IMG/VR virus record: IMGVR_UViG_3300022555_000010
Span: 1-64,000 of that record
DNA from: a virus
Strand: one strand, 5' to 3'
Length of the DNA: 64,000 nt
Made by a program: the position numbers and the translations under genes. Under the pieces are notes generated by a model. It searched no databases, was not told where the DNA came from, and saw only the letters and a program-made list of their open reading frames with translations. Below are positions 36,924 through 53,710 of this stretch, in pieces; within the stretch, counting starts at the first letter, position 1; each line of letters opens with the position of its first letter.

Positions 36924-37205
36924 CTTTTTGCACCCATGGTTATAAATGCCCAAAATGCGGATCTTCGGCTATCCAGATGAAAAAAAGAATTGTGGTGCGA
37001 TATCTCTCAAATCTGGACTCGAAACCCTAATTTATCATCACACGTAAATATCACCGTTAAAGTCGGAAAGTCGAAAATCTTTCTGGAAGATACAGATAAT
37101 CTTTATTGCGGGGGATGTGGCTATTTAAGTGAATCAACAGCCTTTAAGTGGAACCCAGGACCCATAGGCTCTATCCCGGTAACAGCAGAAAAAGAGGTAG
37201 CATGA
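36920..37205 (+). pseudogene. array member split by a frameshift in A7 (36980-36986)
   Basis: MTFCTHGYKCPKC joins ELWC...GPIGSIPVTAEKEVA if one A is removed; aligns with the next gene. Confidence 0.7.
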
Positions 37206-37543
37206 GTGCCAGTTACAGTTATCAAGGATGGAAATGCCCCAAATGCGGTAGCGAGAACCTGGGAGTGACTGTCGAATTGGAATGTCGCCTCGAACAAACC
37301 GAATTTACAAATCCTGAAGGTTATGTCGGGAATGATTACCATGTGGAACCCCCATTCTCGGGGAACGGGGGTATGACCAAAACTTCACCAATGTCCTGTC
37401 ATAATTGCGGATATCAGGCCACGGTTGAAGCATTTGAGTGGATTAAAGGCCCAGAAGGATCTATCACGGCAACAGCAGAAGTCGCAATATGTGACGACTT
37501 AACCCCTCAATCAAGTCTTAATGTGTCATATATGACGCATTAA
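37202..37543 (+). CDS. array microprotein
   Basis: CPKC..CHNC..GPEGSITATAE. Confidence 0.8.
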   Translation: MSASYSYQGWKCPKCGSENLGVTVELECRLEQTEFTNPEGYVGNDYHVEPPFSGNGGMTKTSPMSCHNCGYQATVEAFEWIKGPEGSITATAEVAICDDLTPQSSLNVSYMTH

Positions 37544-37562
37544 AGACACCTGTGTCAATTAT

Positions 37563-37757
37563 ATGAGTCATTATCCATTGATCAGATGCCCAAAATGTTT
37601 CAGTCATGAATTGGATTTGAGAGGTGATCCGAAACATAGTAATTATACGGTATACCAATGCCTGAAATGCGGTAATGATGGTTCGAATATCGAATTCTCA
37701 GTTAATAACCCGGAAGGCTGTATCGCAGTAAATCAGGGCGAGGATGTTAAAGAATGA
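37563..37757 (+). CDS. array microprotein
   Basis: NPEGCIAVNQGEDV. Confidence 0.8.
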   Translation: MSHYPLIRCPKCFSHELDLRGDPKHSNYTVYQCLKCGNDGSNIEFSVNNPEGCIAVNQGEDVKE

Positions 37758-37954
37758 AATCCGGGAAACATAGATGCCATAACTGTATGGGAGATGTCTT
37801 CTGGGACGGAACTCGAAGACAGCCTGTTAAATATATCCTCAAATGCGTCAAATGCGGTCAAACAGGCAATTATCTAACCTTCCTTGATAATACCCCAAAA
37901 GGATGTTTCCTGGTCAGAGAGGAACAAGACGAATTATGCCTCACTTTACCTTAA
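37754..37954 (+). CDS. array microprotein
   Basis: TPKGCFLVREEQDE. Confidence 0.8.
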   Translation: MKSGKHRCHNCMGDVFWDGTRRQPVKYILKCVKCGQTGNYLTFLDNTPKGCFLVREEQDELCLTLP

Positions 37955-38136
37955 AATTAAGATGTCCATATTGTCTATTCAGAATCTTCCACCTCGCTAT
38001 CGTCCAGGATGCATTGGAGATCGAGCCGCAATACGAATGCCAGGGATGCGGTTATACAGATATCTCTGAAAATCTCTACGATAATACCCCAAAAGGATGT
38101 ATCGCAGTGACAATGGGGGAGGACGTAAAAGAATGA
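37936..38136 (+). CDS. array microprotein
   Basis: TPKGCIAVTMGEDV. Confidence 0.8.
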   Translation: MPHFTLKLRCPYCLFRIFHLAIVQDALEIEPQYECQGCGYTDISENLYDNTPKGCIAVTMGEDVKE

Positions 38137-38306
38137 ATTACCGATGCCCCAAATGTAATGAAACCGAATTTAAAGAGGCGAATATTATGTCCAACGGGAG
38201 ACGAGTAGTCGAATGCCGTAATTGTGGATTTGAAGATTTCGATTTCTGGATGATTGACCTCATCCCGGAAGGCACTATCCCAGTAAGACAGGAAAGGGAT
38301 ATTTAA
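38133..38306 (+). CDS. array microprotein
   Basis: IPEGTIPVRQERDI. Confidence 0.8.
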   Translation: MNYRCPKCNETEFKEANIMSNGRRVVECRNCGFEDFDFWMIDLIPEGTIPVRQERDI

Positions 38307-38501
38307 ATGGCTCACTTTATCTTAGGCGTCAAATGTCCCAAATGTCTCTCGCATTCTATTCAGGTGTCAGATATCCAATCCTGGGAAAGAGGAAGACTCT
38401 GGGAATGCACAAATTGCCATTATGACGACGTCGAACAAACCTTTATCCAAAATGAACCAAAAGGCTGTATCACCGTAACAGCAGGAAAAGACGTGGAATG
38501 A
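38307..38501 (+). CDS. array microprotein
   Basis: EPKGCITVTAGKDV. Confidence 0.8.
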   Translation: MAHFILGVKCPKCLSHSIQVSDIQSWERGRLWECTNCHYDDVEQTFIQNEPKGCITVTAGKDVE

Positions 38502-38740
38502 CTATCAGTACCGTCAAAATTACACAATTAAATGGAAAGATTAAAATCAGCCAATTAAGATGTCTTTCATGTGGGAACACGGGATTTGATAAAATGATCA
38601 AAAAAGTGCCTATGATTCAATTGTCCACATTGGACGTCCAATTGAAATGTAATCATTGTGGCCAATTAGGGGATATGTGGATCTTCAGGGATAAAACCCC
38701 TCCAGGTACTATCCCGGTCAACAGGGAAAGGGATATATGA
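38498..38740 (+). CDS. array microprotein
   Basis: TPPGTIPVNRERDI. Confidence 0.8.
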   Translation: MTISTVKITQLNGKIKISQLRCLSCGNTGFDKMIKKVPMIQLSTLDVQLKCNHCGQLGDMWIFRDKTPPGTIPVNRERDI

Positions 38741-38928
38741 TCCGAGTCATCAGATGCCCCATTTGTCTGAGCCACCGTCTCTCCCGAGATATCCCATTGA
38801 AATTCATGGATTATAAATCCAGGTGGAAATGTAAGGATTGCAATTATGAGGATACCGATGATAACTTCATCGTGAATTGTGCCCCAGGATGCATTACCGT
38901 ATCAAGAGGCGAGGACGTAATAAAATGA
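38737..38928 (+). CDS. array microprotein
   Basis: APGCITVSRGEDV. Confidence 0.8.
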   Translation: MIRVIRCPICLSHRLSRDIPLKFMDYKSRWKCKDCNYEDTDDNFIVNCAPGCITVSRGEDVIK

Positions 38929-39250
38929 AAAGATTAAAAGAAATCATGGTTGCCTATCTCAAATTAAATTGGTATCTATTAACCCAAGGCATGTGGAAAG
39001 GCGAATGCGGCTATACCGTCCAACACCAAAATAATCACATCGTTAAAATCGCCGCAGTTAAAGGCTCTATCCGCAATTTCACCTTCCAAGTAATGAAAAC
39101 CTTCTATGAGGAACAATAATGAATAAAAGAAATCACTATAACCAGCCGTCCCCTAAAGAATTCATCATCTTTATCATTATCCTCTTCCTCATTGTGAAAT
39201 TGGGCTGCATGGGATTGGATAAATTGTTGTTGAAATAAAAGGAGTCAATT

Positions 39251-39781
39251 ATGAATTGGTTCAAATGCCTGGAGAAGATTAACGACGTCTCAATATCACC
39301 CTTAGATCAGTTTATGGATAATCGAGGCTGGCTCGCAGAAATATATCGGGAAGATACTACCCCAACTTCCCTCCTCCCCAAAATGGCCTATGTCTCAATC
39401 ACTAAGCCAGGAGTCGTCAGAGGCCCTCACCAACATACTCAACAATCAGACTTATTCGCCTTTGTCTATGGAATATGGTGGGTTAAACTCTGGGACGTCC
39501 GACAAGACTCTCCAACCTATAAGACTATCATGAGATTCAAACTCACGATCCCAGCCGTCGTCATCGTACCCCCAGGCGTCGTCCACGCTTACGGTAACGC
39601 CCATTACAAAAAGAATGGCATCGTCTTCAACCTCCCGAACCAACTCTTCAAAGGCCAAGGCAAGAAAAACCCGGTAGACGAAATCAGACACGAAGAGAAT
39701 CCAGCCTTCAATACAGACGATATCTCAAACCAACATTGGATCTCCCAATTCTGGGCTCTACAAACCTATATCCAATCATAA
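39251..39781 (+). CDS. dTDP-4-dehydrorhamnose 3,5-epimerase-like cupin (RmlC-like)
   Basis: DNRGWLAEIYR, PGVVRGPHQH..Q.D, WDVRQDSPTY, VPPGVVHAY. Confidence 0.85.
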   Translation: MNWFKCLEKINDVSISPLDQFMDNRGWLAEIYREDTTPTSLLPKMAYVSITKPGVVRGPHQHTQQSDLFAFVYGIWWVKLWDVRQDSPTYKTIMRFKLTIPAVVIVPPGVVHAYGNAHYKKNGIVFNLPNQLFKGQGKKNPVDEIRHEENPAFNTDDISNQHWISQFWALQTYIQS

Positions 39782-40016
39782 ACAGCACACCCGTGTAATA
39801 CCTCTTTTCTTCCCCCTACATATAATACTAAAGAAATTTCTGCACTTTCCCCACCCGTGTAATATCGAGGAATAGCCATATTTTCCAGAAGGTAGGGAAA
39901 GAGGTGGAAATGGGTTGAGCAGTATAGGGACATACATGCACGATAACATAGATACTGTTACATAGACATATAGAGAGTTATATACAGGGATAGACATATG
40001 ACTGCTTACCAGGTAA

Positions 40017-40124
40017 CAAGATGAAAATGATATGAAACCAAGATGAAAATGATATGAAACCAAGATGAAAATGATAGCAACCAAGATGAAAATAATATGA
40101 AACCAAGATGAAAATGATAGCAAC
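40017..40124 (+). repeat. five tandem 21-22 bp iteron-like repeats CAAGATGAAAATrATA(TGA/GC)AAC
   Basis: Units start at 40017, 40039, 40061, 40082 and 40104. Confidence 0.9.
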
Positions 40125-40230
40125 CCGACAGAGAATTTTCCCATTCCTCTCCACAGAATTTTCACTCCAATTCTTGTTACGGGACAGAAACACTTCCAAC
40201 AGTTCCATATGGTCGGCGATGTAGGGGCCT

Positions 40231-40303
40231 TGAAATAGGACAGCTATGAAAATAACGGAAGGCAAGTGCCTTGTGGGGGCCTGTTCTATGAGCCAGGATT
40301 TTT
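40231..40303 (+). repeat. bipartite repeat, copy 1: TGAAATAGGACAGCTATG-N39-ATGAGCCAGGATTTTT
   Basis: Same boxes and spacing at 48479-48551. Confidence 0.85.
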
Positions 40304-40337
40304 TGAAAATTCGATTTTGCGATTTTGGGGTAAAAGG

Positions 40338-40552
40338 ATGAATAATGACATGGCGTTAATGATCTCATTGCAATTTTGTGATGGGTGTCGCAAAAAGGTG
40401 GATATAAGGGTGGGGTTATCAGCAGACAGATGGGGGAGGAAGTGGAATATCTGTCCGAGATGTGGTGGGACAGGGCATATTGGGAAAATGATTGGGTATC
40501 TGGGGTAGAGGGGTGCATATTTGTGGCTGATGAAATAAATGTGAGGAATTAA
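40338..40552 (+). pseudogene. array member with an apparent 1-nt deletion near 40467-40469
   Basis: CPRCGG continues in the -1 frame as DRAYWENDWVSGVEGCIFVADE. Confidence 0.65.
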
Positions 40553-40941
40553 TGGGGAGTGGGTTTCAATTCAGCAAAGTGGTGACGACGGCGGAATTAT
40601 ATTGTGCCAAGTGTCGGGAAGTGGTGGACATACGGGTGGACATATCGAAGGATCGGTGTGTGGAGTGGACAGAGTGTCCGAGATGTCATGGGAATTCGAC
40701 GACCTGGAAGAATTCGAATAAGCCTGGGGACACGGTTGGGAGTATTTATGTGGTAGACGAGGAGAATTACCATCAGGATTATCAGAGGATGGCACCACAA
40801 TTTCGGGGGAATCGTGTGGGAGGATCTTGTAGGGAGTGTGGGAACTGCGATAAATGTACGGTACATTCGACAGATGGGTGGGCAAGTTGTTGGTGGCCGA
40901 AGGGAAGTATTATTGTGATGGAGGAGCGTGAGGAGGGATAA
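40552..40941 (+). CDS. array protein, two fused units
   Basis: TVGSIYVVDEE and CWWPKGSIIVMEERE. Confidence 0.8.
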   Translation: MGSGFQFSKVVTTAELYCAKCREVVDIRVDISKDRCVEWTECPRCHGNSTTWKNSNKPGDTVGSIYVVDEENYHQDYQRMAPQFRGNRVGGSCRECGNCDKCTVHSTDGWASCWWPKGSIIVMEEREEG

Positions 40942-40944
40942 AAG

Positions 40945-41121
40945 ATGGTAGAATTCAAACCATGTAGGACTTGTGGGTATCGGCCATATGACAATTACAA
41001 GTTATCGGATGATGGGTGTAACCGGGAATTTATTACAAAGGGAGGGAAAGACTGTTGGGTTCCGGAAGGGAGCATTGGGATTTCGGATGAGCAGCCAGTA
41101 ATTGAGACAATTGGGGTATAA
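40945..41121 (+). CDS. array microprotein (not in track)
   Basis: MVEFKPCRTC...CWVPEGSIGISDEQPVIETIGV. Confidence 0.8.
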   Translation: MVEFKPCRTCGYRPYDNYKLSDDGCNREFITKGGKDCWVPEGSIGISDEQPVIETIGV

Positions 41122-41127
41122 TGGGGG

Positions 41128-41337
41128 ATGGACGATGAGATTAAATATTTCAAATTATGGTGTTATGACTGTAAGAGGTGGGCAGACATACGGATGTCAG
41201 TAGATTTGGAGGGGAAGGAATTAGCAGGGGTGACGAGCTGTTCGATATGTAAAGGGAAGGATACGAGATGGCTCTTTAGTTTTACGGGGGCGTCCAAGGA
41301 GGGGTGCATATTTGTGACGGGGAGTCGGGATGAGTAA
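41128..41337 (+). CDS. array microprotein
   Basis: KEGCIFVTGSRDE. Confidence 0.8.
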   Translation: MDDEIKYFKLWCYDCKRWADIRMSVDLEGKELAGVTSCSICKGKDTRWLFSFTGASKEGCIFVTGSRDE

Positions 41338-41537
41338 TAATGAATTAAAGAGATGTGGGACGTGTGAAGCGTATAAGGATTGGAATCGTGAAGGGGGATT
41401 TGGAGGAGCAGGGATGAAGAGGTGTTCCTTGCATTTAAGAGCGTTGGGGGGGGATATCTGAAGAATGTAGGCGGACGAGGATACATTGGCACCCGGTAGG
41501 GACGGTAAGGGTTGAGGGAGAGCGGGATGAGTTTTAA
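41330..41537 (+). pseudogene. array member frameshifted in G8 (41446-41453)
   Basis: G7 would restore ...HWHPVGTVRVEGERDEF. Confidence 0.7.
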
Positions 41538-41711
41538 ATTGGATGAATTAAAGAGGTGCGGGACTTGTGGGAGTTATCGTGGGGGATCACGTCAGAGAAT
41601 CAGTGTCAGAGGGGATTGATGGGGTTGGGGGTTTGTATGAATGATGGGAAGGGGAGGATTTATTGGCATCCGGTGGGAATGATAAGGGTGGAGGAAGAAA
41701 GGGATGAGTAA
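41527..41711 (+). pseudogene. array member frameshifted in G5 (41581-41585)
   Basis: G6 would restore ...YWHPVGMIRVEEERDE. Confidence 0.7.
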
Positions 41712-41943
41712 GGGCTTGGAGGGATGTAAGGCCTGTGAGACTTGTGGGGATTATTTGGAATGGGAGACGATATTGGTTGCAAGGAAATGGATCTGTACCA
41801 GTGGAATAATTTTTACGGGAGTGTGTATTCAGGATGGCAGGATTTATTGGCATCCGGTGGGGACGATAAGAGTTATGGGGGAGCAAGATGACATTTCAAA
41901 AGATGAGAACGATGGCATTAATTCAGAGGAGTGCCGGGGGTAA
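41704..41943 (+). CDS. array microprotein
   Basis: YWHPVGTIRVMGEQD. Confidence 0.8.
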   Translation: MSKGLEGCKACETCGDYLEWETILVARKWICTSGIIFTGVCIQDGRIYWHPVGTIRVMGEQDDISKDENDGINSEECRG

Positions 41944-42094
41944 GGTTCCGCCGATAGAGGGGGGAGGGTGTCAGGAGTGTCAGGTTTTTTATGATGGGTG
42001 TAACAGTCTTCAGAGTCGGGAGGAGATATTGACTTGTTTTGTAGCATTGGGGTGTATCAAGGTTATTAGAGAGCAGGATGCAGAGTCAGTTTAA
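41888..42094 (+). CDS. array microprotein
   Basis: CFVALGCIKVIREQD. Confidence 0.75.
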   Translation: MTFQKMRTMALIQRSAGGKVPPIEGGGCQECQVFYDGCNSLQSREEILTCFVALGCIKVIREQDAESV

Positions 42095-42251
42095 AGGGTG
42101 TTTCAATTGTGGTCAGAATATCTACGTTCCAAGTGCGATTGTTGGAGTATATTGTAATGATTGTATAGTGGAGGCTGGTAAGGTTCGGATGGAATTATCG
42201 AAATGGTATCCGAAGGGGGCGATACCGGTTCAGGGGGAGCGTGATGAGTAA
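42078..42251 (+). CDS. array microprotein (not in track)
   Basis: WYPKGAIPVQGERDE. Confidence 0.8.
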   Translation: MQSQFKGCFNCGQNIYVPSAIVGVYCNDCIVEAGKVRMELSKWYPKGAIPVQGERDE

Positions 42252-42396
42252 TATTGAATCATGTCGTGGTTGTCAGAGGAGGCAAGGGAGTTGTAATTGG
42301 TTAAGGGAGTCAATGGGAGATAAGTGGATGAGTAATCTTGATCAATGTTGGCATCCGATAGGGACGATATTAGTGATATGGGAGCAGGATGAATAA
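42244..42396 (+). CDS. array microprotein (not in track, 50 aa)
   Basis: CWHPIGTILVIWEQDE. Confidence 0.8.
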   Translation: MSNIESCRGCQRRQGSCNWLRESMGDKWMSNLDQCWHPIGTILVIWEQDE

Positions 42397-42556
42397 TAAG
42401 TGGGAAGGGTGTTCAGAATGTTGTCGAGGGAAGACGGGGTCTGGGTACGGGTATTGTGCCTGGATAAGGGAAGATTTAGGGTGTAGGGATTTAGATGTTC
42501 GGTTGTGTTGGCATCCGGTTGGGACGATTTTAGTGGTTAAGGAACGGGATGAGTGA
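42389..42556 (+). CDS. array microprotein (not in track)
   Basis: CWHPVGTILVVKERDE. Confidence 0.8.
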   Translation: MNNKWEGCSECCRGKTGSGYGYCAWIREDLGCRDLDVRLCWHPVGTILVVKERDE

Positions 42557-42743
42557 ATTCAAGTCATGCACGAAATGTGGTGGAAGGCCATATATTGATT
42601 TCAAGTTATCGATAGGGGATTGTCCTCGGAGGTATTGGATAGATCAGAGGAGGACGTTTAGTGGGGTAGACTGTTGGTATCCGGAGGGGAGTATACCGGC
42701 AGATGATGAGATGCCGGTGATACCGGTAATAGGTGAAGAATGA
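42549..42743 (+). CDS. array microprotein
   Basis: CWYPEGSIPADDEMPVIPVIGEE. Confidence 0.8.
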   Translation: MSEFKSCTKCGGRPYIDFKLSIGDCPRRYWIDQRRTFSGVDCWYPEGSIPADDEMPVIPVIGEE

Positions 42744-42934
42744 AGAATAAACTGGATGAGCGTGTAATCAAGATATTGGGATGTCGGGAATGCGGGAATG
42801 GGGATAGATGTAAGATGGTGGATAGGTGTGTGAGTCGTGCTAATCGGATAGATGAGGAACGGGAGGATGGTCAAGTGGGAGGGTATTGGTATCCTGTTGG
42901 GACGATCCGGGTCGTGGGTGAGAAGAATGGGTGA
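42740..42934 (+). CDS. array microprotein
   Basis: YWYPVGTIRVVGEKN. Confidence 0.8.
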   Translation: MKNKLDERVIKILGCRECGNGDRCKMVDRCVSRANRIDEEREDGQVGGYWYPVGTIRVVGEKNG

Positions 42935-43118
42935 ATTTAATTCATGCTTTACGTGTGAATTTTTACCGTTTGATGGATTTTCATTAGCGTTGCAGGAATG
43001 TCCACATCGGGAATGGGCATTGGTAGCGAACACTCAATTATTTGATTGTTGGGGTCCCAGGGGTTGTATACAGGTGGCAGGCGAGAGGTCTATGATTCCG
43101 GTAATAGGTGAGGAATGA
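42927..43118 (+). CDS. array microprotein
   Basis: CWGPRGCIQVAGERSMIPVIGEE. Confidence 0.8.
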   Translation: MGEFNSCFTCEFLPFDGFSLALQECPHREWALVANTQLFDCWGPRGCIQVAGERSMIPVIGEE

Positions 43119-43336
43119 AGAATGAGGCGTCAGAAGATTTGAAAGCCTTTGTGTTAATGAATCGGTTACAGGAGAAGAGGATGGCATTATGGGCAAGGGG
43201 GAAGGTAGAGGGAGGGGCATGTTCCGCGTGTAATGGGTGTTTTGGATGTAGGGCGTTATTTGGGACCTGGAATAAATGTTGGACACCTATTGGGGCGATC
43301 GGGATTCGAGAGGAGGTGGATGATGGTTCACTGTGA
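43115..43336 (+). CDS. array microprotein
   Basis: CWTPIGAIGIREEVD. Confidence 0.8.
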   Translation: MKNEASEDLKAFVLMNRLQEKRMALWARGKVEGGACSACNGCFGCRALFGTWNKCWTPIGAIGIREEVDDGSL

Positions 43337-43526
43337 AGATTGTGGATTGATGAGGAAGAAGTTCAACAATTGGAATTCGGATGGACCCACGTGTAAGGCG
43401 TTTCGGAAAGCAATGGGGATAGAGAGAGACTTTCGGGTGTCATGGTTGAAGTTTCTGGAACGATGTTGGCATCCTGTGGGGAGTATACCGGTGATCAAGG
43501 AACGAGATGAACAAGATGGAGCCTGA
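43320..43526 (+). CDS. array microprotein
   Basis: CWHPVGSIPVIKERDE. Confidence 0.8.
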   Translation: MMVHCEDCGLMRKKFNNWNSDGPTCKAFRKAMGIERDFRVSWLKFLERCWHPVGSIPVIKERDEQDGA

Positions 43527-43698
43527 CTGTCAGGAATGTGAAATATTGAGGGCTAGGAGTTCAAGAGGGAATCAATGTTCTGAATTTCGGGCGGCGGTTG
43601 GTATGAGGACAGATGTTTTGTATGGGAGTTTGAGTAAGTGTTTTCATCCGGTGGGGACGATACTTGTGGTAGAGGAGTTTGATGAAAAGGGTCATTAA
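43507..43698 (+). CDS. array microprotein
   Basis: CFHPVGTILVVEEFDE. Confidence 0.8.
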   Translation: MNKMEPDCQECEILRARSSRGNQCSEFRAAVGMRTDVLYGSLSKCFHPVGTILVVEEFDEKGH

Positions 43699-43885
43699 TT
43701 GGATTTGGTTATGGTGTACGACTCCGAGGTGGGACAGGGATGATGCGTCTATTTCGATGCAATTGAAGGGATGTAAGGGATGTGGGAGATACAATAAGAA
43801 GTGGGACTGCAAGTTATTGATGACCTATGAGGTCTGTTTTCATATGCCTGGGACGATTAGGGTAATAAGGGAGCAAGATGAGTAA
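43682..43885 (+). CDS. array microprotein
   Basis: CFHMPGTIRVIREQDE. Confidence 0.8.
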   Translation: MKRVINWIWLWCTTPRWDRDDASISMQLKGCKGCGRYNKKWDCKLLMTYEVCFHMPGTIRVIREQDE

Positions 43886-44156
43886 GGATTGTTTAGATTG
43901 TGGGAACAGTCGGTTAGATGTTTATGGACGGAGTATTCCGGTTATACACCACATATGTTTAAAGTGTCGTGGAGACAGGTTTGATCCAAAGCCGATGGTA
44001 TCGCAATGGTATCCGAGGGGGTTGATTCGGGTAGAGGATGAGTTTGAGATAGGGCCGGCGGAGTATGTGGGGCAGATGCCGATACGGGAGGAAGTCACGG
44101 TAATACCCAGGGGATGTATTGGGGTAATCAGGGAGATGGCCGAAAGTGGAGCGTGA
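43878..44156 (+). CDS. array protein with two tags
   Basis: WYPRGLIRVEDE and IPRGCIGVIRE. Confidence 0.8.
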   Translation: MSKDCLDCGNSRLDVYGRSIPVIHHICLKCRGDRFDPKPMVSQWYPRGLIRVEDEFEIGPAEYVGQMPIREEVTVIPRGCIGVIREMAESGA

Positions 44157-44475
44157 TCACAAGATTATCTGTAATGAGTGTGGGAAGATATATTACCCGG
44201 AGTCATTTGATGAGATTGATTCCCGGACGAGGTGTGTTTGTCGTGGTTCATTTTATGGGATAGCTGATTTTAGAGGATTAGATGTTTGGGGGATGTTGGG
44301 GGAGTTCAGGATTTTTGAGGGCAAGGAGATAAAAGTTGAGGCGATATTGGTAGACACGAAGACATTGGGGACGATGAACATAAAGAAGGAAGAAAGTGAT
44401 AATGGGTTATTTTGGAATAAGAGGCTGATTTTGGAAGGGTGTATTAATGCGTGGAAGGAAAGGGATGAGAAATGA
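44146..44475 (+). CDS. array protein
   Basis: LEGCINAWKERDE. Confidence 0.75.
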   Translation: MERDHKIICNECGKIYYPESFDEIDSRTRCVCRGSFYGIADFRGLDVWGMLGEFRIFEGKEIKVEAILVDTKTLGTMNIKKEESDNGLFWNKRLILEGCINAWKERDEK

Positions 44476-44612
44476 TAGGGGAACATGAAGCGGGAAAGGG
44501 GTCAGCGAGTCGGGTAAAGGACTTGAAGAAATACGGGGAAGGGTATTCCGGTATACAATGGAACAGCAAGAAGCCGGCGAAGGTAAAGCCGGCTAAGAAG
44601 ATCAAGAGATGA
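44472..44612 (+). CDS. 46-aa basic untagged peptide inside the array
   Basis: MIGEHEAGKGSASRVKDLKKYGEGYSGIQW...; ATGA overlaps at both ends. Confidence 0.6.
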   Translation: MIGEHEAGKGSASRVKDLKKYGEGYSGIQWNSKKPAKVKPAKKIKR

Positions 44613-44809
44613 ACATTCGGTCAATGAACGAGATTGGGGATGGTCCTGGGTGTCGGGAAGACTGTAATGTGGCAATGAATGGGTGTGCCATGTTTCGACC
44701 GAAGATGGATGTTTGGATAGTCGTGGACAAACCCGGAGCCACACATTGTTATCATCCCCGTGGCAGTATTTTAGTGGTTAAGGAGTTAGATGAGTTGGAG
44801 TTGCAATAA
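44609..44809 (+). CDS. array microprotein
   Basis: CYHPRGSILVVKELDE. Confidence 0.8.
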   Translation: MNIRSMNEIGDGPGCREDCNVAMNGCAMFRPKMDVWIVVDKPGATHCYHPRGSILVVKELDELELQ

Positions 44810-44975
44810 TTGTGGAGGACGATGGGAGGGGAAGGGTTGCACTTTAGACCAACTGTTATATTGGGAGATTCAGGATCAGAAGAGACAAAATTGGGATCAG
44901 GTATGGAAGAATGAGGAGGTGTGTTATTGGCCTCCTGGGACTATTTTGGTGATTAATGAAGAAGACGAATTGTGA
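44790..44975 (+). CDS. array microprotein
   Basis: CYWPPGTILVINEEDE. Confidence 0.8.
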   Translation: MSWSCNNCGGRWEGKGCTLDQLLYWEIQDQKRQNWDQVWKNEEVCYWPPGTILVINEEDEL

Positions 44976-45156
44976 AGATTGTGCCGGAGGGAATAGTAAA
45001 TTCAAGGGGTGTCAGGCGGATCTTTTAGAACTCATTGTGGATGCGGATATGCTTCAGAGTATGTTATCAGGGGATGGGACGGCATTATGTTGGCATCCGA
45101 AGGGATGTATTCTGGTGATTAAGGAGCAAGATGAAGAGGGACTGTGCGGATTGTGA
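44956..45156 (+). CDS. array microprotein
   Basis: CWHPKGCILVIKEQDE. Confidence 0.8.
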   Translation: MKKTNCEDCAGGNSKFKGCQADLLELIVDADMLQSMLSGDGTALCWHPKGCILVIKEQDEEGLCGL

Positions 45157-45313
45157 AGTCTTAAGGCGATACGAGAATCCTGGATATCATTGTGAAAATT
45201 TCAGGAAAGCGGTAGGGATAGAGGTTGATGGCAGATTACGAGATAAGCCATTGACCTCTTATTGTTTTCATCCTTACAGGACTATTTTAGTGGTCGGAGA
45301 ACGAGATGAGTAA
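45131..45313 (+). CDS. array microprotein
   Basis: CFHPYRTILVVGERDE. Confidence 0.8.
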   Translation: MKRDCADCEVLRRYENPGYHCENFRKAVGIEVDGRLRDKPLTSYCFHPYRTILVVGERDE

Positions 45314-45482
45314 TCCTTGTTTAGACTGCAATATACCTCTTCTTACAAGTTGCTGGGAATTTCGATTAGCTCTGGGGATCAGTTCTGTAGATCTTCCCCA
45401 TGACCAGGCATTAAATTCTCGTTGTTATCATCCCGTGGGAAGCATAAAAGTAGAAGGAGAGCGTGATGAGACAAGAGATTAA
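45306..45482 (+). CDS. array microprotein (not in track)
   Basis: CYHPVGSIKVEGERDE. Confidence 0.8.
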   Translation: MSNPCLDCNIPLLTSCWEFRLALGISSVDLPHDQALNSRCYHPVGSIKVEGERDETRD

Positions 45483-45783
45483 AGAGGACCGGTGGAAGGG
45501 GATCGGTCACATCCGACAGATTTCAAAAGAGGTTCTTACTGAGACAGAGTATTCGAATGCGTCTGTAAGGTCTGGGGAGTGTCCCTGGAGATTTGAGAGG
45601 AACAATAGGTGGCCGTATCGGTTAGGGATATGTCAGAAGAGTGCTGGGAAGAATGGGACAATGATCTGTATGCATTTCCGGGGTATAATAAAGAAGAAGG
45701 AAGAATATGTTCGGTGTTCGTATTGGATGAGGCCAAAGGGGACGATTAAAGTGGTACTGGAGAAGGATGAAGCGGAAGGATAA
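45466..45783 (+). CDS. array protein (long type)
   Basis: MRPKGTIKVVLEKDE; paralog of 45948. Confidence 0.8.
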   Translation: MRQEIKEDRWKGIGHIRQISKEVLTETEYSNASVRSGECPWRFERNNRWPYRLGICQKSAGKNGTMICMHFRGIIKKKEEYVRCSYWMRPKGTIKVVLEKDEAEG

Positions 45784-45970
45784 AAATAAGAACAAGGCTC
45801 CGGGGTGTTTGGGGTGTCATGTGGTATCAGCATCAGATGATTGTTTTGGGTTCAGGTGTCGGATGAATGTCTGGTATCAACCAGATAAAGCTGGTCGGCA
45901 AAAGTGTTATCATCCTTCTGGGACAATTTTAGCGATATCGGAGCAGGATGAACATATTGCAGAACATTGA
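45767..45970 (+). CDS. array microprotein
   Basis: CYHPSGTILAISEQDE. Confidence 0.8.
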   Translation: MKRKDKNKNKAPGCLGCHVVSASDDCFGFRCRMNVWYQPDKAGRQKCYHPSGTILAISEQDEHIAEH

Positions 45971-46292
45971 GACTGATGATTTCTCGAAGGGAGTGAGGCA
46001 CATACGGGAGTCTTCGAATTGGGGGCAATATCAGGTGTCGGCTGAAGTATTTCCGGATGATTGTCCGAAGAGGTTGGAATATAAGGAGAGTGATCTTGAT
46101 ATGGGGGCAGGGGAATTTATGATAGGAATCTGTAAGGCACATTATCCTTCATCGACAGGGGGGAATACTCATACGTGTAAGCATTATGTTGGGAAGATTC
46201 ACAAGGGGAATGTGGATTACATAAGGTGTTCTTGTTTATTTCATCCTGTTGGGGCGATCAAGGCAATTCAGGAAAGAGAGTCTGATGAGTGA
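45948..46292 (+). CDS. array protein (long type)
   Basis: FHPVGAIKAIQERE. Confidence 0.8.
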   Translation: MNILQNIETDDFSKGVRHIRESSNWGQYQVSAEVFPDDCPKRLEYKESDLDMGAGEFMIGICKAHYPSSTGGNTHTCKHYVGKIHKGNVDYIRCSCLFHPVGAIKAIQERESDE

Positions 46293-46477
46293 ACAAAGAT
46301 TGTGAGGAGTGTGGAGGAAACAGGTGGATTGAGAAGACTCCTGCTGGTAATTTTATACGGGATCATCGGGTGTGTGACTGGGTTTGGAAGAATCATATGC
46401 GAATGACGGATGACGCGTGTTGGCATCCAAAGGGGAGTTTGATCGTTGTAAGTGAAAGAGCCGAGGACAAATTGTAG
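46289..46477 (+). CDS. array microprotein
   Basis: CWHPKGSLIVVSERAE. Confidence 0.8.
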   Translation: MNKDCEECGGNRWIEKTPAGNFIRDHRVCDWVWKNHMRMTDDACWHPKGSLIVVSERAEDKL

Positions 46478-46652
46478 AGGGTGTGATGTTCAAAATTCGG
46501 TGTTTGATGGCCGAAAGAACTTATTAAAGACCTGTATCAATTTCAGGGATCGGATGGGTTGTTCGAGGCATATGGGAGTGAATTGGATGGATGACTGCTG
46601 GCATCCGATAGGGACTGTTTTAGTAGCCGAGGAACAAGATGAATACCTGTGA
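46452..46652 (+). CDS. array microprotein
   Basis: CWHPIGTVLVAEEQDE. Confidence 0.8.
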   Translation: MKEPRTNCRGCDVQNSVFDGRKNLLKTCINFRDRMGCSRHMGVNWMDDCWHPIGTVLVAEEQDEYL

Positions 46653-46821
46653 GGATTGCAACATTCGGAATTGGGCAAATGAGAGTCATCTGGACTTATT
46701 CAAGTCCTGTAATTATTTCAGGAATTTGATGGAGTGTGATAGGCATACGGGGTTGAATTGGTTGGATGATTGTTGGCATCCGATTGGGACGATTTTAGTG
46801 ACCAGGGAGAAAGATGAGTAG
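46639..46821 (+). CDS. array microprotein
   Basis: CWHPIGTILVTREKDE. Confidence 0.8.
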   Translation: MNTCEDCNIRNWANESHLDLFKSCNYFRNLMECDRHTGLNWLDDCWHPIGTILVTREKDE

Positions 46822-46990
46822 AATACTGTTGTGTCCAAATTGTCAGGTGTTTCAGAATGGGTCTGGGATTCTTTGTAATGAATTCATCACATTGATGAAT
46901 GTAAGTTTATTACCTGAGACTCGGGAATGGCAAGGCAAGTGTTTTCATCCGATAGGAACGATTTTAGTGATATGGGAACAAGATGAGTGA
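46814..46990 (+). CDS. array microprotein (not in track)
   Basis: CFHPIGTILVIWEQDE. Confidence 0.8.
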   Translation: MSRILLCPNCQVFQNGSGILCNEFITLMNVSLLPETREWQGKCFHPIGTILVIWEQDE

Positions 46991-47192
46991 TCAAGACATT
47001 AGTTGTTCAGAGTGTGAGATCTTCATATCGAAGAAGAAGTATAAGAGCAATGGGATTTCACGGTGTGTTGACTTCAGGTGGAAGATGGAGATCTTTGATG
47101 AAAGAGAAGGGCTGTCATTTCAAGATTATTCGATGAGGTGTTTTCATTTGCCTGGGACGATTTTGGTATCAGGAGAGCAAGATGAAGTGTGA
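46983..47192 (+). CDS. array microprotein
   Basis: CFHLPGTILVSGEQDE. Confidence 0.8.
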   Translation: MSDQDISCSECEIFISKKKYKSNGISRCVDFRWKMEIFDEREGLSFQDYSMRCFHLPGTILVSGEQDEV

Positions 47193-47370
47193 AGACTGCA
47201 ATCTGACTCACTGGGGAATATTCAAGATGAGAGGGGAGAAGTGTTTTTATTTTAAGGAGAAGATGGGACTTAACTGGTTCGTGTTACCGGAGAAGTCGTG
47301 GACAGAGCATGACTTACCGTGTTGGCATTCACCTGGGACGATATTGATCGTGGAGGAGAAAGATGAGTGA
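47182..47370 (+). CDS. array microprotein
   Basis: CWHSPGTILIVEEKDE. Confidence 0.8.
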   Translation: MKCEDCNLTHWGIFKMRGEKCFYFKEKMGLNWFVLPEKSWTEHDLPCWHSPGTILIVEEKDE

Positions 47371-47563
47371 GGATGATTGCCGGGATTGTGGTGCATATCG
47401 GTTTGAGAGGAAAGCTGGAGAAGGGACTATGCGGACATGGACGATGTGCAACAAGATTGGGAATTTACTCGGGAAGAACATTCTTCCAACTTTGCAACAG
47501 TGTTTTCACCCATCTGGGACGATACTGGTGATAGGAGAGAAAGATGAAAACAAAGTGTTGTGA
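47363..47563 (+). CDS. array microprotein
   Basis: CFHPSGTILVIGEKDE. Confidence 0.8.
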   Translation: MSEDDCRDCGAYRFERKAGEGTMRTWTMCNKIGNLLGKNILPTLQQCFHPSGTILVIGEKDENKVL

Positions 47564-47744
47564 TTGCCAATTGGTGATTAACGGAAAGGTTTTAGGGTAT
47601 CGTAACTGCAATGCATTTCGAGTGAAGATGGGACTGGGGCATATGACTCCATTACCGGTGACGAAGGATGAGTATGATTGGGGCAGTCGATGTTTTCATA
47701 AGAGCGGGACGATATTAGTAGCAGATGAACGAGAAGCAATATGA
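47544..47744 (+). CDS. array microprotein
   Basis: CFHKSGTILVADERE. Confidence 0.8.
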   Translation: MKTKCCDCQLVINGKVLGYRNCNAFRVKMGLGHMTPLPVTKDEYDWGSRCFHKSGTILVADEREAI

Positions 47745-47940
47745 TTGTCGGGAATGTGGTTCTTATTTGATGGACATTCCGAAAGGTAGTGTTGGGAATA
47801 AGCCGATGAGGAATTGGAGATTATGTCGGTTGGCTTGCAAGTTAAAGGGGGTTGTTCCGATTAATTCCCGTGATAAGTGTTGGTATCCTATTGGGACTAT
47901 CCCGGAATTTGGGGAGCAAGATGAAGCCGACAAAGGATGA
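47725..47940 (+). CDS. array microprotein
   Basis: CWYPIGTIPEFGEQDE. Confidence 0.8.
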   Translation: MNEKQYDCRECGSYLMDIPKGSVGNKPMRNWRLCRLACKLKGVVPINSRDKCWYPIGTIPEFGEQDEADKG

Positions 47941-48115
47941 GATTGATGGGTATCTGGACACAGAGACAAGTCTTCATTGTCCGGAACACGGGTCTACTAA
48001 AATATTTTTATCCGATATTTGGAGGACGACAATCGCTTGTGGCAAATGTGGATATTTTCGTGATTTATTCCCGGAAGGAACTATTCTCGTTGTTGCGGAG
48101 AAAGATGAAAGTTAA
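47921..48115 (+). CDS. array microprotein
   Basis: FPEGTILVVAEKDE. Confidence 0.8.
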   Translation: MKPTKDEIDGYLDTETSLHCPEHGSTKIFLSDIWRTTIACGKCGYFRDLFPEGTILVVAEKDES

Positions 48116-48281
48116 GTGTAAAACTTCGTTAGAGGAAGAGGATTTACACATCATTTATTGGGATGATGATATGAAGGAGATGGTCGGGGATATGACTCCG
48201 GCGGGAACTTTCTGGTTAGTGCCATCAGGGTGTATTCCGGTGATTAGGGAACGAGATGAAACTGAGGAGAGGAATGCTTAA
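48105..48281 (+). CDS. array microprotein lacking CxxC
   Basis: VPSGCIPVIRERDE. Confidence 0.75.
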   Translation: MKVKCKTSLEEEDLHIIYWDDDMKEMVGDMTPAGTFWLVPSGCIPVIRERDETEERNA

Positions 48282-48486
48282 GGAAACGAACAAGAGGATG
48301 CAGGAATGGATGATAATAGAGGAGGTTGCCTATAGGCGTGATTTAGAGAGGATCGCCAGGGAAGGGGTCAGGACTTGTCAGAACTGTGCGAAGTTTAATT
48401 GTTGTTTATTAGCCTGGGGAGACATTCCGACGTGTTGGTGTCCGGTGGGATGTATCTATGTCTTTGCAGAGAGGGATGTGAAATAG
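48256..48486 (+). CDS. array microprotein
   Basis: CWCPVGCIYVFAERDV. Confidence 0.8.
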   Translation: MKLRRGMLKETNKRMQEWMIIEEVAYRRDLERIAREGVRTCQNCAKFNCCLLAWGDIPTCWCPVGCIYVFAERDVK

Positions 48487-48551
48487 GACAGCTATGTTTT
48501 TGTTGGACGGTTACGGGGTATAATAGGTCAGTTTGATGAGCCAGGATTTTT
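48479..48551 (+). repeat. bipartite repeat, copy 2 (TATAAT in the spacer)
   Basis: TGAAATAGGACAGCTATG 48479-48496 and ATGAGCCAGGATTTTT 48536-48551. Confidence 0.85.
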
Positions 48552-49527
48552 GGCATTTTCCAATTTAGGAAAGAGGGGTGATATGGAATATTTCAGGTAT
48601 TCGGGGCACAAGAAGCCGGAGAAGACGATTGCAGAACAAAGGCAGGATATTGAGGATTTAAAGGAGAGGATTCGGAATGAGCCTCGGCAGTCATCCCGGA
48701 CAAGGATGGCAGCGGATTTACAGGATCGGGTTAGGAAATTGATATCCAAGTTGCCTTGTAAGACATCGAAGAGGAAAATCCACAATGTCGATGCCAGTTA
48801 AAGTCTGGAATATTAAGAAACTTCAGGCAGAGATTGAGGGTAGGAAGATGTTAACGCCGAATGATATTAGGCACATTCGATCACTTCTGGGAGAGGTTGA
48901 GGACAGGAAGCAGTTTTGGCACTGGTTGAAGTGCGAACTTTGTGGTGGATATTCGATTTTTGATGATCATCTTCATATGTTTGATTATCAGAAGCGGGGA
49001 GTTTGTGCTTGTGGTCATCGTCTTTTCAAGGTGGCAGATTCCGGTAATTTCTCAAAGGGGACGATATATGTCTGGGACGAATGTGACACGGAAGATGACG
49101 ATTCCTCAGAGATTGAGATTTTTTCAAGTCAAGACGATGGTGCCTTGGTTATCGTGTAGTGACTGCCAGGAGGGGCAGGATGGGGCAGATTGCGGTCCAA
49201 AGTATGAAGCCATGAGGTCAGATGGGTTAAAGGACTGTTGGCGACCACGGGGACACATACTGGTTTGGGATGAAAGGGATGTGGAATGACAACATCTTGG
49301 AGTGCCAGGAAGTTTATCACGACGATTTTCGGGACAGGTCCGAGTCTTTCCTTGAAAGAGGTCAAGCAGAGAAGATATCACATTGTGGATTGTGAGACTT
49401 GTGCCAGGGACGGGCATGGTCCGAATTATGAACAATGTAAGAATGATGTGGAGATTTGGAAGAAGGCAGGGGTTAATTGTTGGAGGCCTGTAGGGGTTCT
49501 CTTAATTTGGGATGAAAGGGATACAGA

Positions 49528-50289
49528 ATGATTGAATATCAAATGGTGTTGATTTGTTTGGCGGCGGTAATTGCAGAGACAATTGATTCCGGGCTGGGAA
49601 TGATGTATGGGACGATATTATCCCCGTTGCTGATAATGTGTGGATATTCCCCGTCTGATGTAATTCCGGCGATTTTATTCTCCCAGGCGATTGGGGGACT
49701 AATTGCGACATTGGGACATCACCGGCACGGTAATGCAGATTTTCGATTTATGTCTGATGATTTCAAGATAGGTGCGGCGATTTATTTATTAGGGGTCGTG
49801 GCAGTCTTTATGGGAGCGGGGCTGGCGATGAGGATACCGAAAGAATGGCTGCAATTATATATTGGGATTTTGGTATCGATTATGGGATTGATTGTGATTT
49901 GCAGGCACAACTTTCATTTTTCCTGGAAAAAGGTAATGGCAATAGGATTTTTAAGTGCGTTTAACAAATCATTGTCTGGGGGAGGATATGGCCCATTGGT
50001 ATCGAGTGGTTTAATTATTGCCGGGACGAAGGGAAAGAATTCGATTGCGACTTGTGATTTTGCGGAGGCACCGATATGTGTGACGGCATTCTTTGTTTGG
50101 GCCTGGATGAAGAATAAATACCCGGATTTGAATATGTTGTGGGCATTAACGATAGGATCAATGGTTGGGGGATGGATAGGACCCTGGGGATTATCCCGGA
50201 TTAAGACGGATGGGATTGTGACGACATTGGTGGGCTGGCTGGCATTAGGGGTTGGAATCACTTGTGCCTTTGGGATCGTAAAGCCTTGA
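49528..50289 (+). CDS. TauE/SafE (TSUP)-family membrane transporter
   Basis: IDSGLGMMYGTILSPLL, HHRHGN, LSGGGYGPLV; multiple TM helices. Confidence 0.85.
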   Translation: MIEYQMVLICLAAVIAETIDSGLGMMYGTILSPLLIMCGYSPSDVIPAILFSQAIGGLIATLGHHRHGNADFRFMSDDFKIGAAIYLLGVVAVFMGAGLAMRIPKEWLQLYIGILVSIMGLIVICRHNFHFSWKKVMAIGFLSAFNKSLSGGGYGPLVSSGLIIAGTKGKNSIATCDFAEAPICVTAFFVWAWMKNKYPDLNMLWALTIGSMVGGWIGPWGLSRIKTDGIVTTLVGWLALGVGITCAFGIVKP

Positions 50290-50940
50290 GAGTAAAGATT
50301 AAAGATCGGGAATCAATTATTGCGAAGGCACTTAATTCCCGGAGAGGGAGGATGAATTTGGCTCGGGCGATGGTCCAGCCGATATTAGGAGGCAGAGGAG
50401 TTTCTTCAGGATTAGTTTGTGATACTTGTGCCTTTGCAGAGATAGAGGATTGTGAGATTTACAGGATTACTCTTAATGAGGATCGGGGATGTTGGATGGA
50501 GAAGGGGAGATTGATTATTTGCCTGGAGGAGAGGGATGAAGCGTAATTGTGAAGATTGTCGGATCTGGACAGAGAATATCCCTTGTAGTGAATTTGCCAA
50601 GAGGCATCAATTATACTCCGAAGGTGGTCGAAATTTCACACAGGAATTTGATGCAGGGAAGTGTATTTGTTTCCATGAGTTCGGAACAATTCTGATATGG
50701 AATGAAATTGATGTATGAGTTTGTGGAGTAGATATAAAGTCTGGAGAGACAAACCTTGGACGGTTTATATCGAACAGGGGATACCGGTGGTCCTGGAGAC
50801 GGGGAGATTATTAATTCCGGGGAAGTCCCTTGGTTTCATGTCTGTCCAACTTGTAACAAACAATTGTCGGGGCAATTAAGTGGGATGTTCTGGGTTGATG
50901 AAAACATTGGGACAATTTTCACTTGGGATGAGATGGATGT

Positions 50941-50988
50941 ATGATCTCTTATGATACACAGTATATGATCTCTTATGATACACAGTAT
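50941..50988 (+). repeat. perfect 24-bp tandem duplication at a gene start
   Basis: ATGATCTCTTATGATACACAGTAT x2 (MISYDTQY x2). Confidence 0.9.
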
Positions 50989-52251
50989 TGGTCTTGCAAA
51001 TTATGTGGCAAGGAATACAGTCGGTCGAAGAAATCATTTGATCGATGGCCTGTTGGAAGTTTGACAAGTCAACCCTGGTTGTTTAACTGTAAGCATCTTC
51101 ATCATTTAATCTCGGAATCTGAAACCTATGTTTGTCCGGAAGGGTGTATATTTGTTCATGCAAAAGAAGAATTGGATGAAGAAATGGTTGAAGAGGTTGA
51201 AACCTGAAGACCAATATGCGGCACCATTGATTGAGTGGTGTGACCTTCACGGCAAGGTGAGTCATTTCCAACCGGACGATGATGGTGAACTTCGCTGTGC
51301 CGAATGTGGTAAGAGGACTCAGGAATTACCTGAATTCCCGAAAGGGTGCATTATAACCTGGGGAGAGAAAGACTTTGGATAATCGAGATCCAAACAGATA
51401 TTGTGACACGCATGGAACCAATGGGGCTGTTCAAACGGGTTGGACCGGATGGCCGAGGGATACTTGGCTTTGCCCTTATTGTGGTGAAAAATTGAAAATA
51501 GTCCCGGCTGGATGTTTTCTGGTTCGCGGTGAGAGGGATGTTATGGATTTTGATCAGGGAGAGGAATCAACGGATGAGTGATCCTAAAATACCGTGGCAG
51601 AGAATGTGGCGGGAAGCCTATTGTGAGCATTGTGAAGACATAGGGGGATATGAGCCATGCACGAGTCCTCCGAGTCAATTACCACCTTGTGAGAAGTGTC
51701 ATCGTAACACTATGATGTGGCAGGCGATTGTGATACCTGAAGGAACTATTTTTGCCTGGGAGGAACGAGATGAGTTATAGTTCAGAATATTGGGCAGTAT
51801 TGGACAAGAATTTGCGGGATTTAAATCCGAGGGTGCAAGTATATGGGGACGGGTGGTATTTATTCCGGTGTAGTAGATGCAAGGAGCATTTTGTGGGGAC
51901 ATCGATGGTGGAGTGGTGTGACTGCGGCAATACTAATTTCAATGATAGTCCGATGGGAAGTATTAGAGTGGTGTCGGAATTAACGGATCGGGATGCCGGG
52001 AGTATAATCACCTGGGATGAAAGAGATGAGCCATGCAATTCATTGTTCCAAAGAATGAAGAGATTAATCGGACGATAGAGAGGCCGGGTAAGGGTCGGGA
52101 GTGTAGGACTTGCAGGCATTTATGGAACTGGGAAAAAATTGGGCAAGGGCTAAAGTATTGTGGAGGTTGTGATAATTGGACTCGGAATAACTGGGTGCCT
52201 GATTGTCCTGATGGGACGCTTTTAGCGATTGATGAAAAAGATGAGGATTAA

Positions 52252-52413
52252 ATGACTCGGGATCAGATGACTACGGCAAGTGTGGAGGAGGCATTCAGAG
52301 CCTGGCAGAAAGATATGGATCATCAGTTGTTTAAGGCAATGGATTCGATTTTCATCACCAATCTCAAAAAGGCCGGGATTATTGTGACAGAGTGTGAAGA
52401 AGATGAAGGATGA
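52252..52413 (+). CDS. helical array member without CxxC (not in track)
   Basis: DHQLFKAMDSIFITNLKKAGIIVTECEEDE. Confidence 0.7.
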   Translation: MTRDQMTTASVEEAFRAWQKDMDHQLFKAMDSIFITNLKKAGIIVTECEEDEG

Positions 52414-52573
52414 GAATCAAACCTGGGAAGAGTTTGAGGTTTCCCAAAAGAAGGAGTGGAAAAGATGGCGTTATACCCGTGACCACCTATTTCAAGAGAT
52501 ATTTGATAAAATTTGGATTGCCCACTTAAAAACTTCCGGGACAATTGTGACCACTGATGAAAAAGACTGTTAA
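52403..52573 (+). CDS. helical array member without CxxC (not in track)
   Basis: DHLFQEIFDKIWIAHLKTSGTIVTTDEKD. Confidence 0.7.
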   Translation: MKDENQTWEEFEVSQKKEWKRWRYTRDHLFQEIFDKIWIAHLKTSGTIVTTDEKDC

Positions 52574-53365
52574 TTCGCCAAATGTTCTACGAGGAACATT
52601 CCCGGTTTTGAAGTCGATATGCCAGAGATGTATGGCAAAGACAAGGGTTCCTTTGGGAACAATAGGGGATGTGAATAAGAACGGGACTTTCAGGAAGCCG
52701 GTATCCTGGACAGATTTGGATGAGGACAGATGGAAAGCAGGATTGGTATTATGTCCACAAATGGGGCATGAAGCAAAGCCAAACAAGCATTGGTGTCTTC
52801 GGGCAATAGAGGTAATGGCAGTAAAAGAAGGGGCAATATCCGTCTGGGATGACTCCAATAAAATCTGAAGAAAAATTTGTAGTTTGCGTAATTTCATTAA
52901 AAAGTGTAAAAAAATCTTTAGTTTATGAAATCAACAGATAAAGAGATAACGGATTACATGAGGAAGAACAATCGCTGTCCGGATTGTGGTGGCGATGATT
53001 TCAGGGAAGGTCCGAGTGGAGGGATGTCTACGAACATCATGTGTGCCGGATGTGGAGCCAGGTTTAATATGAGTCCCTTTGGAGCGGAGAGGATTGGTGA
53101 TCCAGTTGTCCCGGTTGGATGTCTTCCGGCATTATTCGAGGAAGACGTTCAAACGCCTTTAGAGAAGGTTGTCGGATTCTTCAAGAGATGAAAATAACTC
53201 CAGATCGGATCGAAGTTCCTTGGTGTATCTTCTGTAATGAGGAAAAATACTTGGATGAGGTTCGGAAGTATAACCGGGACTTCAGATGTCCGAGATGTGG
53301 TGATAGACTCCTCTGGAGGGATTTTGCCAGTCCGGAAGGGATGATTCGGGTGACAGGTGAACAAG

Positions 53366-53710
53366 ATGTATGATGACCTTTCAAAGAAACAGGAGATGTG
53401 GGCAGAAGAGGACCGTAAGATCTTTCACTCGATGTCTTTAGCAATGTGTCCGGAAGGATGTATTTTGGTCGAGGATGACAAGATGCAGACTGAAGAAGCG
53501 AATCCGCCTGGAGTGTTGACTCTGGAAGCGTTGATGTTCGCGACAGCAGTCATTGAAACTCCTTCAGGGTGCATTACAGCATTTGATGAGAAAGAGGAGA
53601 CGGTGGATACGATTGCCAGGCAGGATATTCTGTTGATGATAAACCAGGTTGATCTGATGAATTACAAGGCTAAAGGGGTCATCGTGGGGACTGATGAGCA
53701 AGATGAATAG
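53366..53710 (+). CDS. array protein with three tags
   Basis: CPEGCILVEDD, TPSGCITAFDEKE, AKGVIVGTDEQDE. Confidence 0.75.
   Translation: MYDDLSKKQEMWAEEDRKIFHSMSLAMCPEGCILVEDDKMQTEEANPPGVLTLEALMFATAVIETPSGCITAFDEKEETVDTIARQDILLMINQVDLMNYKAKGVIVGTDEQDE

Follow-up and report, generated by a model that had tools for sequence, protein, structure and literature searches.

Overlapping gene pairs that carry the downstream gene's Shine-Dalgarno (SD) element within the 3' end of the upstream gene are documented in most bacterial groups, and coupling of such pairs through termination and re-initiation of translation is documented in bacteria (PMC6728339). This report concerns a phage locus in which such a junction is repeated along a whole family of small genes. 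The DNA analyzed (the window) is the first 64 kb, 64,000 nucleotides, of IMG/VR record IMGVR_UViG_3300022555_000010, a linear viral sequence of 151,773 bp (152 kb) estimated to be 72% complete. It contains a tandem array of microprotein genes whose products share a short conserved C-terminal peptide, here called the tag, and at most junctions of the core array the tag codons contain the start of the next gene. The array shares with the described pairs (PMC6728339) a common direction of the genes, a downstream start situated within the upstream gene or at its end, and an SD element in the upstream gene's 3' coding region; the array flanks and related phages use the canonical ATGA form. The core differs in that its starts lie 8-26 nt (once 56 nt) before the stop, inside a conserved Asp codon, and in that the core repeats this dual-coding arrangement about 30 times, as would follow from its belonging to a family motif that was duplicated. 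That the junction is a repeated, family-wide variant of known overlapping-gene coupling is well supported.

Integrons (IntI, attI and attC) resemble the locus in their long one-directional arrays of short, apparently promoterless genes with a recurring element between them. However, no IntI-type recombinase was found in the phage record, the recurring element of the phage is coding sequence without hairpin potential (not the inverted repeat of an attC-type site), the order of units is invariant among near-identical phage genomes, and the units are all paralogs from a single family, not unrelated cassettes. Families of tandem genes expand via unequal recombination in large DNA viruses, as in the poxvirus "gene accordions." The phage locus likewise holds a tandem family, placed at a syntenic hot spot and varying in content from one related virus to another, but neither recent copies (maximum 52% amino-acid identity) nor copy-number polymorphism were seen in it. 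Prochlorosin-type precursor-peptide libraries combine one shared recognition peptide with variable cores. Here too dozens of small Cys-rich open reading frames (ORFs) share one short conserved peptide and are otherwise divergent; the shared peptide of the phage is C-terminal, however, and the bodies keep a four-Cys, zinc-ribbon-like pattern.

The tag contains the start of the next gene

Core units align to the pattern M-x(2-5)-CxxC-x(~12)-C-x(~20)-C[WFY]HPxGTILVxxExDE, in which the Met, three Cys and one Glu are invariant across the aligned units and the fourth Cys and the Gly nearly so. We curated 40 junctions in 40338-48486 and counted codon positions from the Gly (G) of PxG. In 30 of them the ATG of the next gene is embedded in the tag: 27 times in the GAT of E-x-D-E at G+9, once in an AAT at the same position (start 42927), and twice three codons earlier (44956, in AAT, and 47725, in GAT). 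The remainder are ATGA overlaps (4/40), GTG or GTGA starts (3/40), and abutting or short-gap junctions with a 1-nt overlap or gaps of 3-6 nt (3/40); no intergenic gap in the core exceeds 6 nt. Successive genes overlap by 4-56 nt at 37 of the 40 junctions; where the start is embedded, the overlap is 8 nt at 12 junctions and otherwise 11-26 nt, once 56 nt. The embedded ATG is the sole start that retains the conserved N-terminal CxxC of the next unit, and public gene calls on identical contigs choose the same embedded starts. A sequence-only reading of this DNA had placed the next ATG within the Asp codon at 41704, 42244, 42389, 45131, 46983, 47182 and 47921, and all seven are indeed ATGs beginning at codon position 2 (G-ATG-A). 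It had also described the residues following the Asp as out-of-frame overlap, which agrees with what is seen: the 0-16 residues after D-E are unconserved and correspond to the N-terminus of the next gene in another frame. The segments flanking the core mostly have ATGA overlaps in place of embedded starts.

The further claim that the end of the tag encodes the ribosome-binding site of the next gene is supported by the distribution of SD strings (GGAG, GAGG or AGGA), which occur at -15 to -4 of 26 out of 37 ATG starts versus 43 out of 218 other ATGs of the region (Fisher p = 2.6e-9). Spacing from GGAG to ATG at the tags is 4-6 nt. The non-array genes of the phage show an SD signal at -12 to -8, with a GGAG spacing of 4-9 nt (mostly 5-9), and SD-dependent initiation is therefore to be expected in the host.

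For each tag column, the codons chosen were set against those used in the gene bodies of the same array, a test of synonymous sites that the sequence-only reading had called for. The Asp codon at G+9 is GAT rather than GAC by 29:1, whereas GAT makes up 74% in the bodies (p = 0.005). The codon at G+6, before the invariant Glu, has G as its third base in 24 of 41 tags, against 39% in the bodies (p = 0.009), and this G completes GGAG or GGAA. The codon after the Asp always begins with G (Glu 26, Asp 2, Ala 1, Val 1, and Gly after the Asn variant). None of the Gly, Thr, Ile, Leu, Val, Pro and His columns, nor either Glu column, departs from body codon usage. Conservation of the tag is therefore at the peptide level, with no homogenisation of its DNA; nucleotide-level selection beyond coding is confined to the bases that form the SD element and the ATG.

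Relatives carry a different solution. A profile search of 1.8 billion representative proteins returned 84 matches, about 60 of them not encoded by this genome, all small, unannotated and metagenomic, and representing 84 clusters of homologues that stand alone and measure 46-148 aa. The contigs that carry them define at least four other lineages: L134 (identical to L135 and L136), L137 with L071 and L138, L139 with L140, and L011/L012 and L013/L014. Their locus is syntenic with that of the window, having an epimerase-like gene upstream and, downstream, orthologues of the genes at 52551, 52922, 53790 and 55341 at 42-76% identity. In L134 and L137 the tag is GTILVxDERP[AV]-stop, that is, PxGTILVxDE is kept and the end is R-P-[AV]-stop. 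Here the next ATG is fixed at +32 nt from the Gly codon, in an ATGA overlap with GAGAGG 5 nt upstream, at 19 of 35 and 10 of 23 junctions respectively; a minority of ATGs are embedded in a GAT at G+6. The L011 and L013 units, which are 30-57% identical to those of the window, have the GATGA type of junction (all 7 of the L011 junctions). Across the lineages compared, the peptide up to the invariant Glu is universal and the tail beyond it tracks junction type. No other evidence speaks as strongly for the tail past the invariant Glu being junction sequence as this retention of PxGTILVx[DE]E with an end that differs according to junction type.

We regard the array as a long gap-free operon of co-directional paralogous microprotein genes whose units run from ATG to ATG, each carrying the next gene's initiation site, with successive genes probably coupled in translation; this account is likely correct. 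Each protein ends in PxG-[TSC]-I-L-V-x-[x/D]-E, a conserved peptide that is kept for its protein sequence, and the few codons after its Glu are the junction sequence, in the core of this phage in the version x-GAT-GAR. The Glu codon and the G preceding it make up a GGAG-like SD element, and the Asp codon with the next G makes up the following gene's ATG, which lies in the +1 frame; the upstream gene continues for 0-16 codons to a stop. Terminating ribosomes would be released 8-26 nt (once 56 nt) from an SD-preceded ATG in unstructured RNA, and the downstream cistron, with no spacer, would be translated via re-initiation, de novo initiation, or both. When a unit, defined as embedded ATG to next embedded ATG, is duplicated in tandem, the copy would come with the following gene's initiation region at its 3' end, and this would explain why one solution is repeated about 30 times. 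Folding of eight junction windows as single-stranded DNA gave z-scores of -1.1 to +1.1 versus shuffles, with no hairpin or excess structure, and promoter- and terminator-like sites inside the array are not above chance. The anatomy, the statistics, the confinement of nucleotide constraint to the SD and ATG bases, and the other solution of the relatives are observed; coupling, a single transcript, and the origin of units by duplication are what we infer from this arrangement.

Several observations weigh against the operon account. The SD spacing at the tags is at the short end of the range for the phage's other genes, and the region is rich in G and A, so SD-like strings are common there (20% of the ATGs that are not starts have one). 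E-x-D is kept in the last core unit (48448-48486) although its embedded ATG is directly followed by a stop, so conservation of the Asp may partly be protein-level or historical. Three frameshifted units in the core mean that not every cistron need be functional.

Alternative readings of the junctions

The tail might be kept for the sake of the protein alone, with E-x-D-E under amino-acid constraint and the ATG of GAT-GAR incidental, used opportunistically and free of nucleotide selection. The acidic residues at G+6 and G+7 are kept in all lineages and also in the internal tags of fused ORFs, where no start follows; the last core unit keeps E-R-D with no gene behind it; and most Asp codons of the bodies are GAT in any case. 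Yet the internal tags that keep the acidic pair do not keep the Asp at G+9, the preference for GAT exceeds body usage, and the residues other than Glu that follow the Asp all come from GNN codons. The Asn variant (AAT-G) changes the amino acid and keeps the ATG, and where the Asp is encoded by GAC (44937 and 46433) the next start lies elsewhere. In relatives R-P-[AV]-stop stands in place of x-D-E and the tag is otherwise intact, so the fold does not require the tail, and we consider a protein-only constraint very unlikely. Another alternative denies that the ORFs are independent genes, and takes the array either for a polyprotein made by serial +1 frameshifting or for a non-coding repeat with incidental ORFs. 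Each unit is in the +1 frame relative to the one before it, as serial frameshifting would have it, and three units need a frameshift to be read through. But every unit has its own ATG, SD element and stop codon, amino acids are conserved at the Cys positions and in the tag while synonymous sites vary freely, stand-alone homologues exist in metagenomes, and the junctions have no slippery-site pattern in common. On the strength of the signals in each unit and the amino-acid-level conservation we reject both forms as extremely improbable.

The sequence-only reading had joined its description of a coupling junction to a second proposal, that tags of about 40-50 nt act as portable recombination sites and that tag-to-tag exchange duplicates, deletes or reorders units with coupling preserved, as in an integron without an integrase. 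The first half stands, since the SD element and start are in the tag end; the second gains no support from the collinear assemblies, the unhomogenised tags or the lack of a recombinase. All exact repeats of at least 16 nt in the core lie within a tag or directly abut one, array content and order differ strongly among related phages despite syntenic flanking genes of 45-76% identity, best paralogs are often one or two units apart (suggesting tandem and two-unit block duplication), and fused ORFs with two or three tags exist, all of which shuffling could explain. Nevertheless, ten other assemblies of the phage (L001-L010, from ENA, JGI and Logan) are 99.95-100% identical over 1-20 kb, collinear, and free of unit-scale insertions or deletions; the duplicate contigs of each relative likewise show none, and P0027 and P0065, variants at the level of single-nucleotide polymorphisms, have identical architecture. 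In-register identity between tags averages 55% and reaches 84% at most, the longest common exact run being 18 nt and the typical run 5-8 nt, and synonymous sites in the tag show normal codon usage rather than homogenisation. No paralog pair exceeds 52% amino-acid identity, and so there has been no recent duplication. Junctions lack a hairpin, neither tyrosine (PF00589) nor serine (PF00239) recombinases were found in the 151,773-bp record, with its estimated completeness of 72%, and rare unequal crossing-over is to be expected in any tandem family with no special system needed. Shuffling through the tags is accordingly quite unlikely in our judgment.

Array order compared between genomes gives a divided answer. 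Near-identical genomes are collinear, which counts against shuffling; the distant lineages share the locus, with array edges and flanks collinear, and do not share unit order in the interior, so collinearity, the outcome named beforehand as one that would refute the proposal, holds for half of the comparison. The L011 order, too, is in part unlike that of the window. These interior differences are turnover and are compatible with any mechanism. An identity of 30-50% leaves orthology uncertain and is too low for breakpoints to be positioned with respect to the tag; a relative at 85-98% identity, which would allow them to be mapped, was not found in the collections searched. The earlier observation that related bodies occur both adjacent and interleaved is correct, with identities of 51% for 46452/46639, 52% for 40945/42549, 44% for 42549/42927, 32% for 45466/45948 and 33% for 40552/41128, and these relations are old. 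Aligning the three members of the PVIPVIGEE subfamily with their flanks gave no duplication boundaries at this divergence.

Array anatomy and genome context

The tag-bearing array is larger than the sequence-only reading stated. About 74 tags occur from 36990 to 55156, some within fused ORFs that have two or three each, and the array comprises a core and two flanking segments (Table 1), in which the bodies that bear the tag are more diverged.

Table 1. Coordinates of array segments, individual units and example junctions within the window.
Feature	Position	Strand	Description
Upstream segment	36990..38928	+	9 units with clear CPxC...CxxCG zinc-ribbon bodies; tag P-[EK]-G-C-I-x-V...E-D-V; junctions mostly ATGA
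Core array	40338..48486	+	About 40 tandem overlapping genes, 50-129 aa
First core unit	40338..40552	+	Split over two frames; body frame ends at 40508, tag frame at 40552
Two adjacent units, 41330 and 41527	41330..41711	+	Body and tag frames differ, relative to intact paralog at 41704
Example tag and junction	42345..42396	+	Tag codons hold GGGAG, then CAGG, then ATG 42389, the next start; 8-nt overlap
Variant junction	42899..42934	+	Asp changed to Asn (AAT), then GGG; embedded ATG 42927 kept, amino acid altered
Example tag and junction	46770..46821	+	Next start 46814 in GAT of ..R-E-K-D-E-stop
Downstream segment	48785..55156	+	About 23 more diverged tags, some ORFs with 2-3; interrupted by TauE gene; embedded-ATG and ATGA junctions mixed
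TauE/SafE-family membrane protein gene inside array	49528..50289	+	Start overlaps stop of preceding tag (ATGA)

The three frame-split units of the core (40338-40552, 41330-41537 and 41527-41711) have the same sequence in three independent assemblies, L001-L003, and are therefore not errors of a single assembly; they may be pseudogenes or slippage sites. A run of eight Gs lies within the unit at 41330. The ORFs at 40552-40941, 43878-44156, 51752-52078 and 53357-53710 each have two or three tags and are fused units in which the start at the internal junction has been lost. The TauE gene is 72% identical to the copy in L139; it was not found in the examined stretches of L134 and L137.

Other features of the array region are recorded here as side observations. 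A 46-aa basic ORF without a tag (44472-44612) lies inside the core, is 55% identical to a protein in the same neighbourhood of L011, and has a 52% match in L137. Five copies of a 21-22-nt tandem repeat (40014-40143), whose core, CAAGATGA, matches the commonest junction string, lie in the gap that separates the first array unit from the epimerase-like gene. A 54-nt direct repeat with 70% identity between its copies is found at the start of the core (40278-40331) and past the last core unit (48526-48579), the second copy falling in and slightly past the core's sole sizeable non-coding gap (48487-48549). In the downstream segment, an exact 24-nt tandem duplication at 50940-50987 gives one unit a repeated MISYDTQY at its N-terminus.

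Essentially all genes of the window are on the + strand, and the sequence has a strong G>C skew. GC skew is -0.04 at 38-40 kb, rises to between +0.51 and +0.53 across the core array, and is about +0.2 to +0.34 in most of the remaining window despite the one-strand gene arrangement. A tailed phage is indicated by genes for a large terminase, portal, tail fibre and NAD-ligase; RtcB, a serpin-like protein, and AAA and CobT/VWA proteins are also encoded. The C-terminal part of the ORF at 7026-8186 (residues 306-374) matches the serpin family PF00079 with E = 5.5e-8.

Megablast of 40-50 kb against phage GenBank sequences gave no match, and neither did scans of IMG/VR that used TauE, the epimerase-like protein (as a single sequence and aligned), alignment A1, or a tag DNA pattern. 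Scanning metagenomes with a degenerate DNA pattern yielded at least 119 matches, mostly chance, with L071 and L129 real among the matches listed. In GTDB genomes the pattern C-W-H-P-x-G-T-I produced 95 single chance matches and no array.

The microproteins and what they may do

The units match no Pfam or PHROG family (72 units were searched against Pfam), and the upstream units reach Pfam zinc-ribbon models below threshold only. Their Cys patterns are CPxC...CxxCG in the upstream segment and CxxC...C...C(W)H in the core. An AlphaFold2 model of one core unit has low confidence (predicted local distance difference test score, pLDDT, of 68), and with it Foldseek against PDB and BFVD, and a search of the ESM Atlas, returned no usable match. 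As for the likeness to prochlorosins, no leader family of ribosomally synthesized and post-translationally modified peptides (RiPPs) is matched in Pfam, and no RiPP-modifying enzyme is present among the few neighbours scanned or having precomputed Pfam hits, a set short of an exhaustive search of the neighbourhood. The neighbours so covered in this phage and its relatives include a cupin-type sugar epimerase, TauE, NAD-epimerase, SIS, LpxR and a methyltransferase.

A common C-terminal peptide on many zinc-ribbon-like bodies suggests, speculatively, a shared partner or address. In a fuller version of this idea, which we think rather unlikely, PxGTILVx[DE]E would serve at the C-terminus as an address for docking, processing or virion packaging, through which at least 70 different zinc-ribbon microproteins reach one partner, and the locus would be a fast-turnover "effector library" in which ATG-to-ATG copies are immediately expressible and occasional tag-guided unequal exchange is the source of turnover.

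The junctions provide a natural case of dual coding in which protein constraint and initiation constraint can be separated base by base within one peptide motif, and they offer two solutions to one junction problem, GATGA within the tag and ATGA at its end, that can be compared across lineages. Gene models are now fixed for about 70 unannotated microproteins, including their starts, frames, fusions and frameshifts, and the integron-like reading is removed for now. The array shows how dozens of small proteins could be co-expressed off one message. Of more interest than the junction itself is the family that it serves, which in the collections searched is restricted to phages, and which occupies a syntenic locus whose content is not collinear from one lineage to another.

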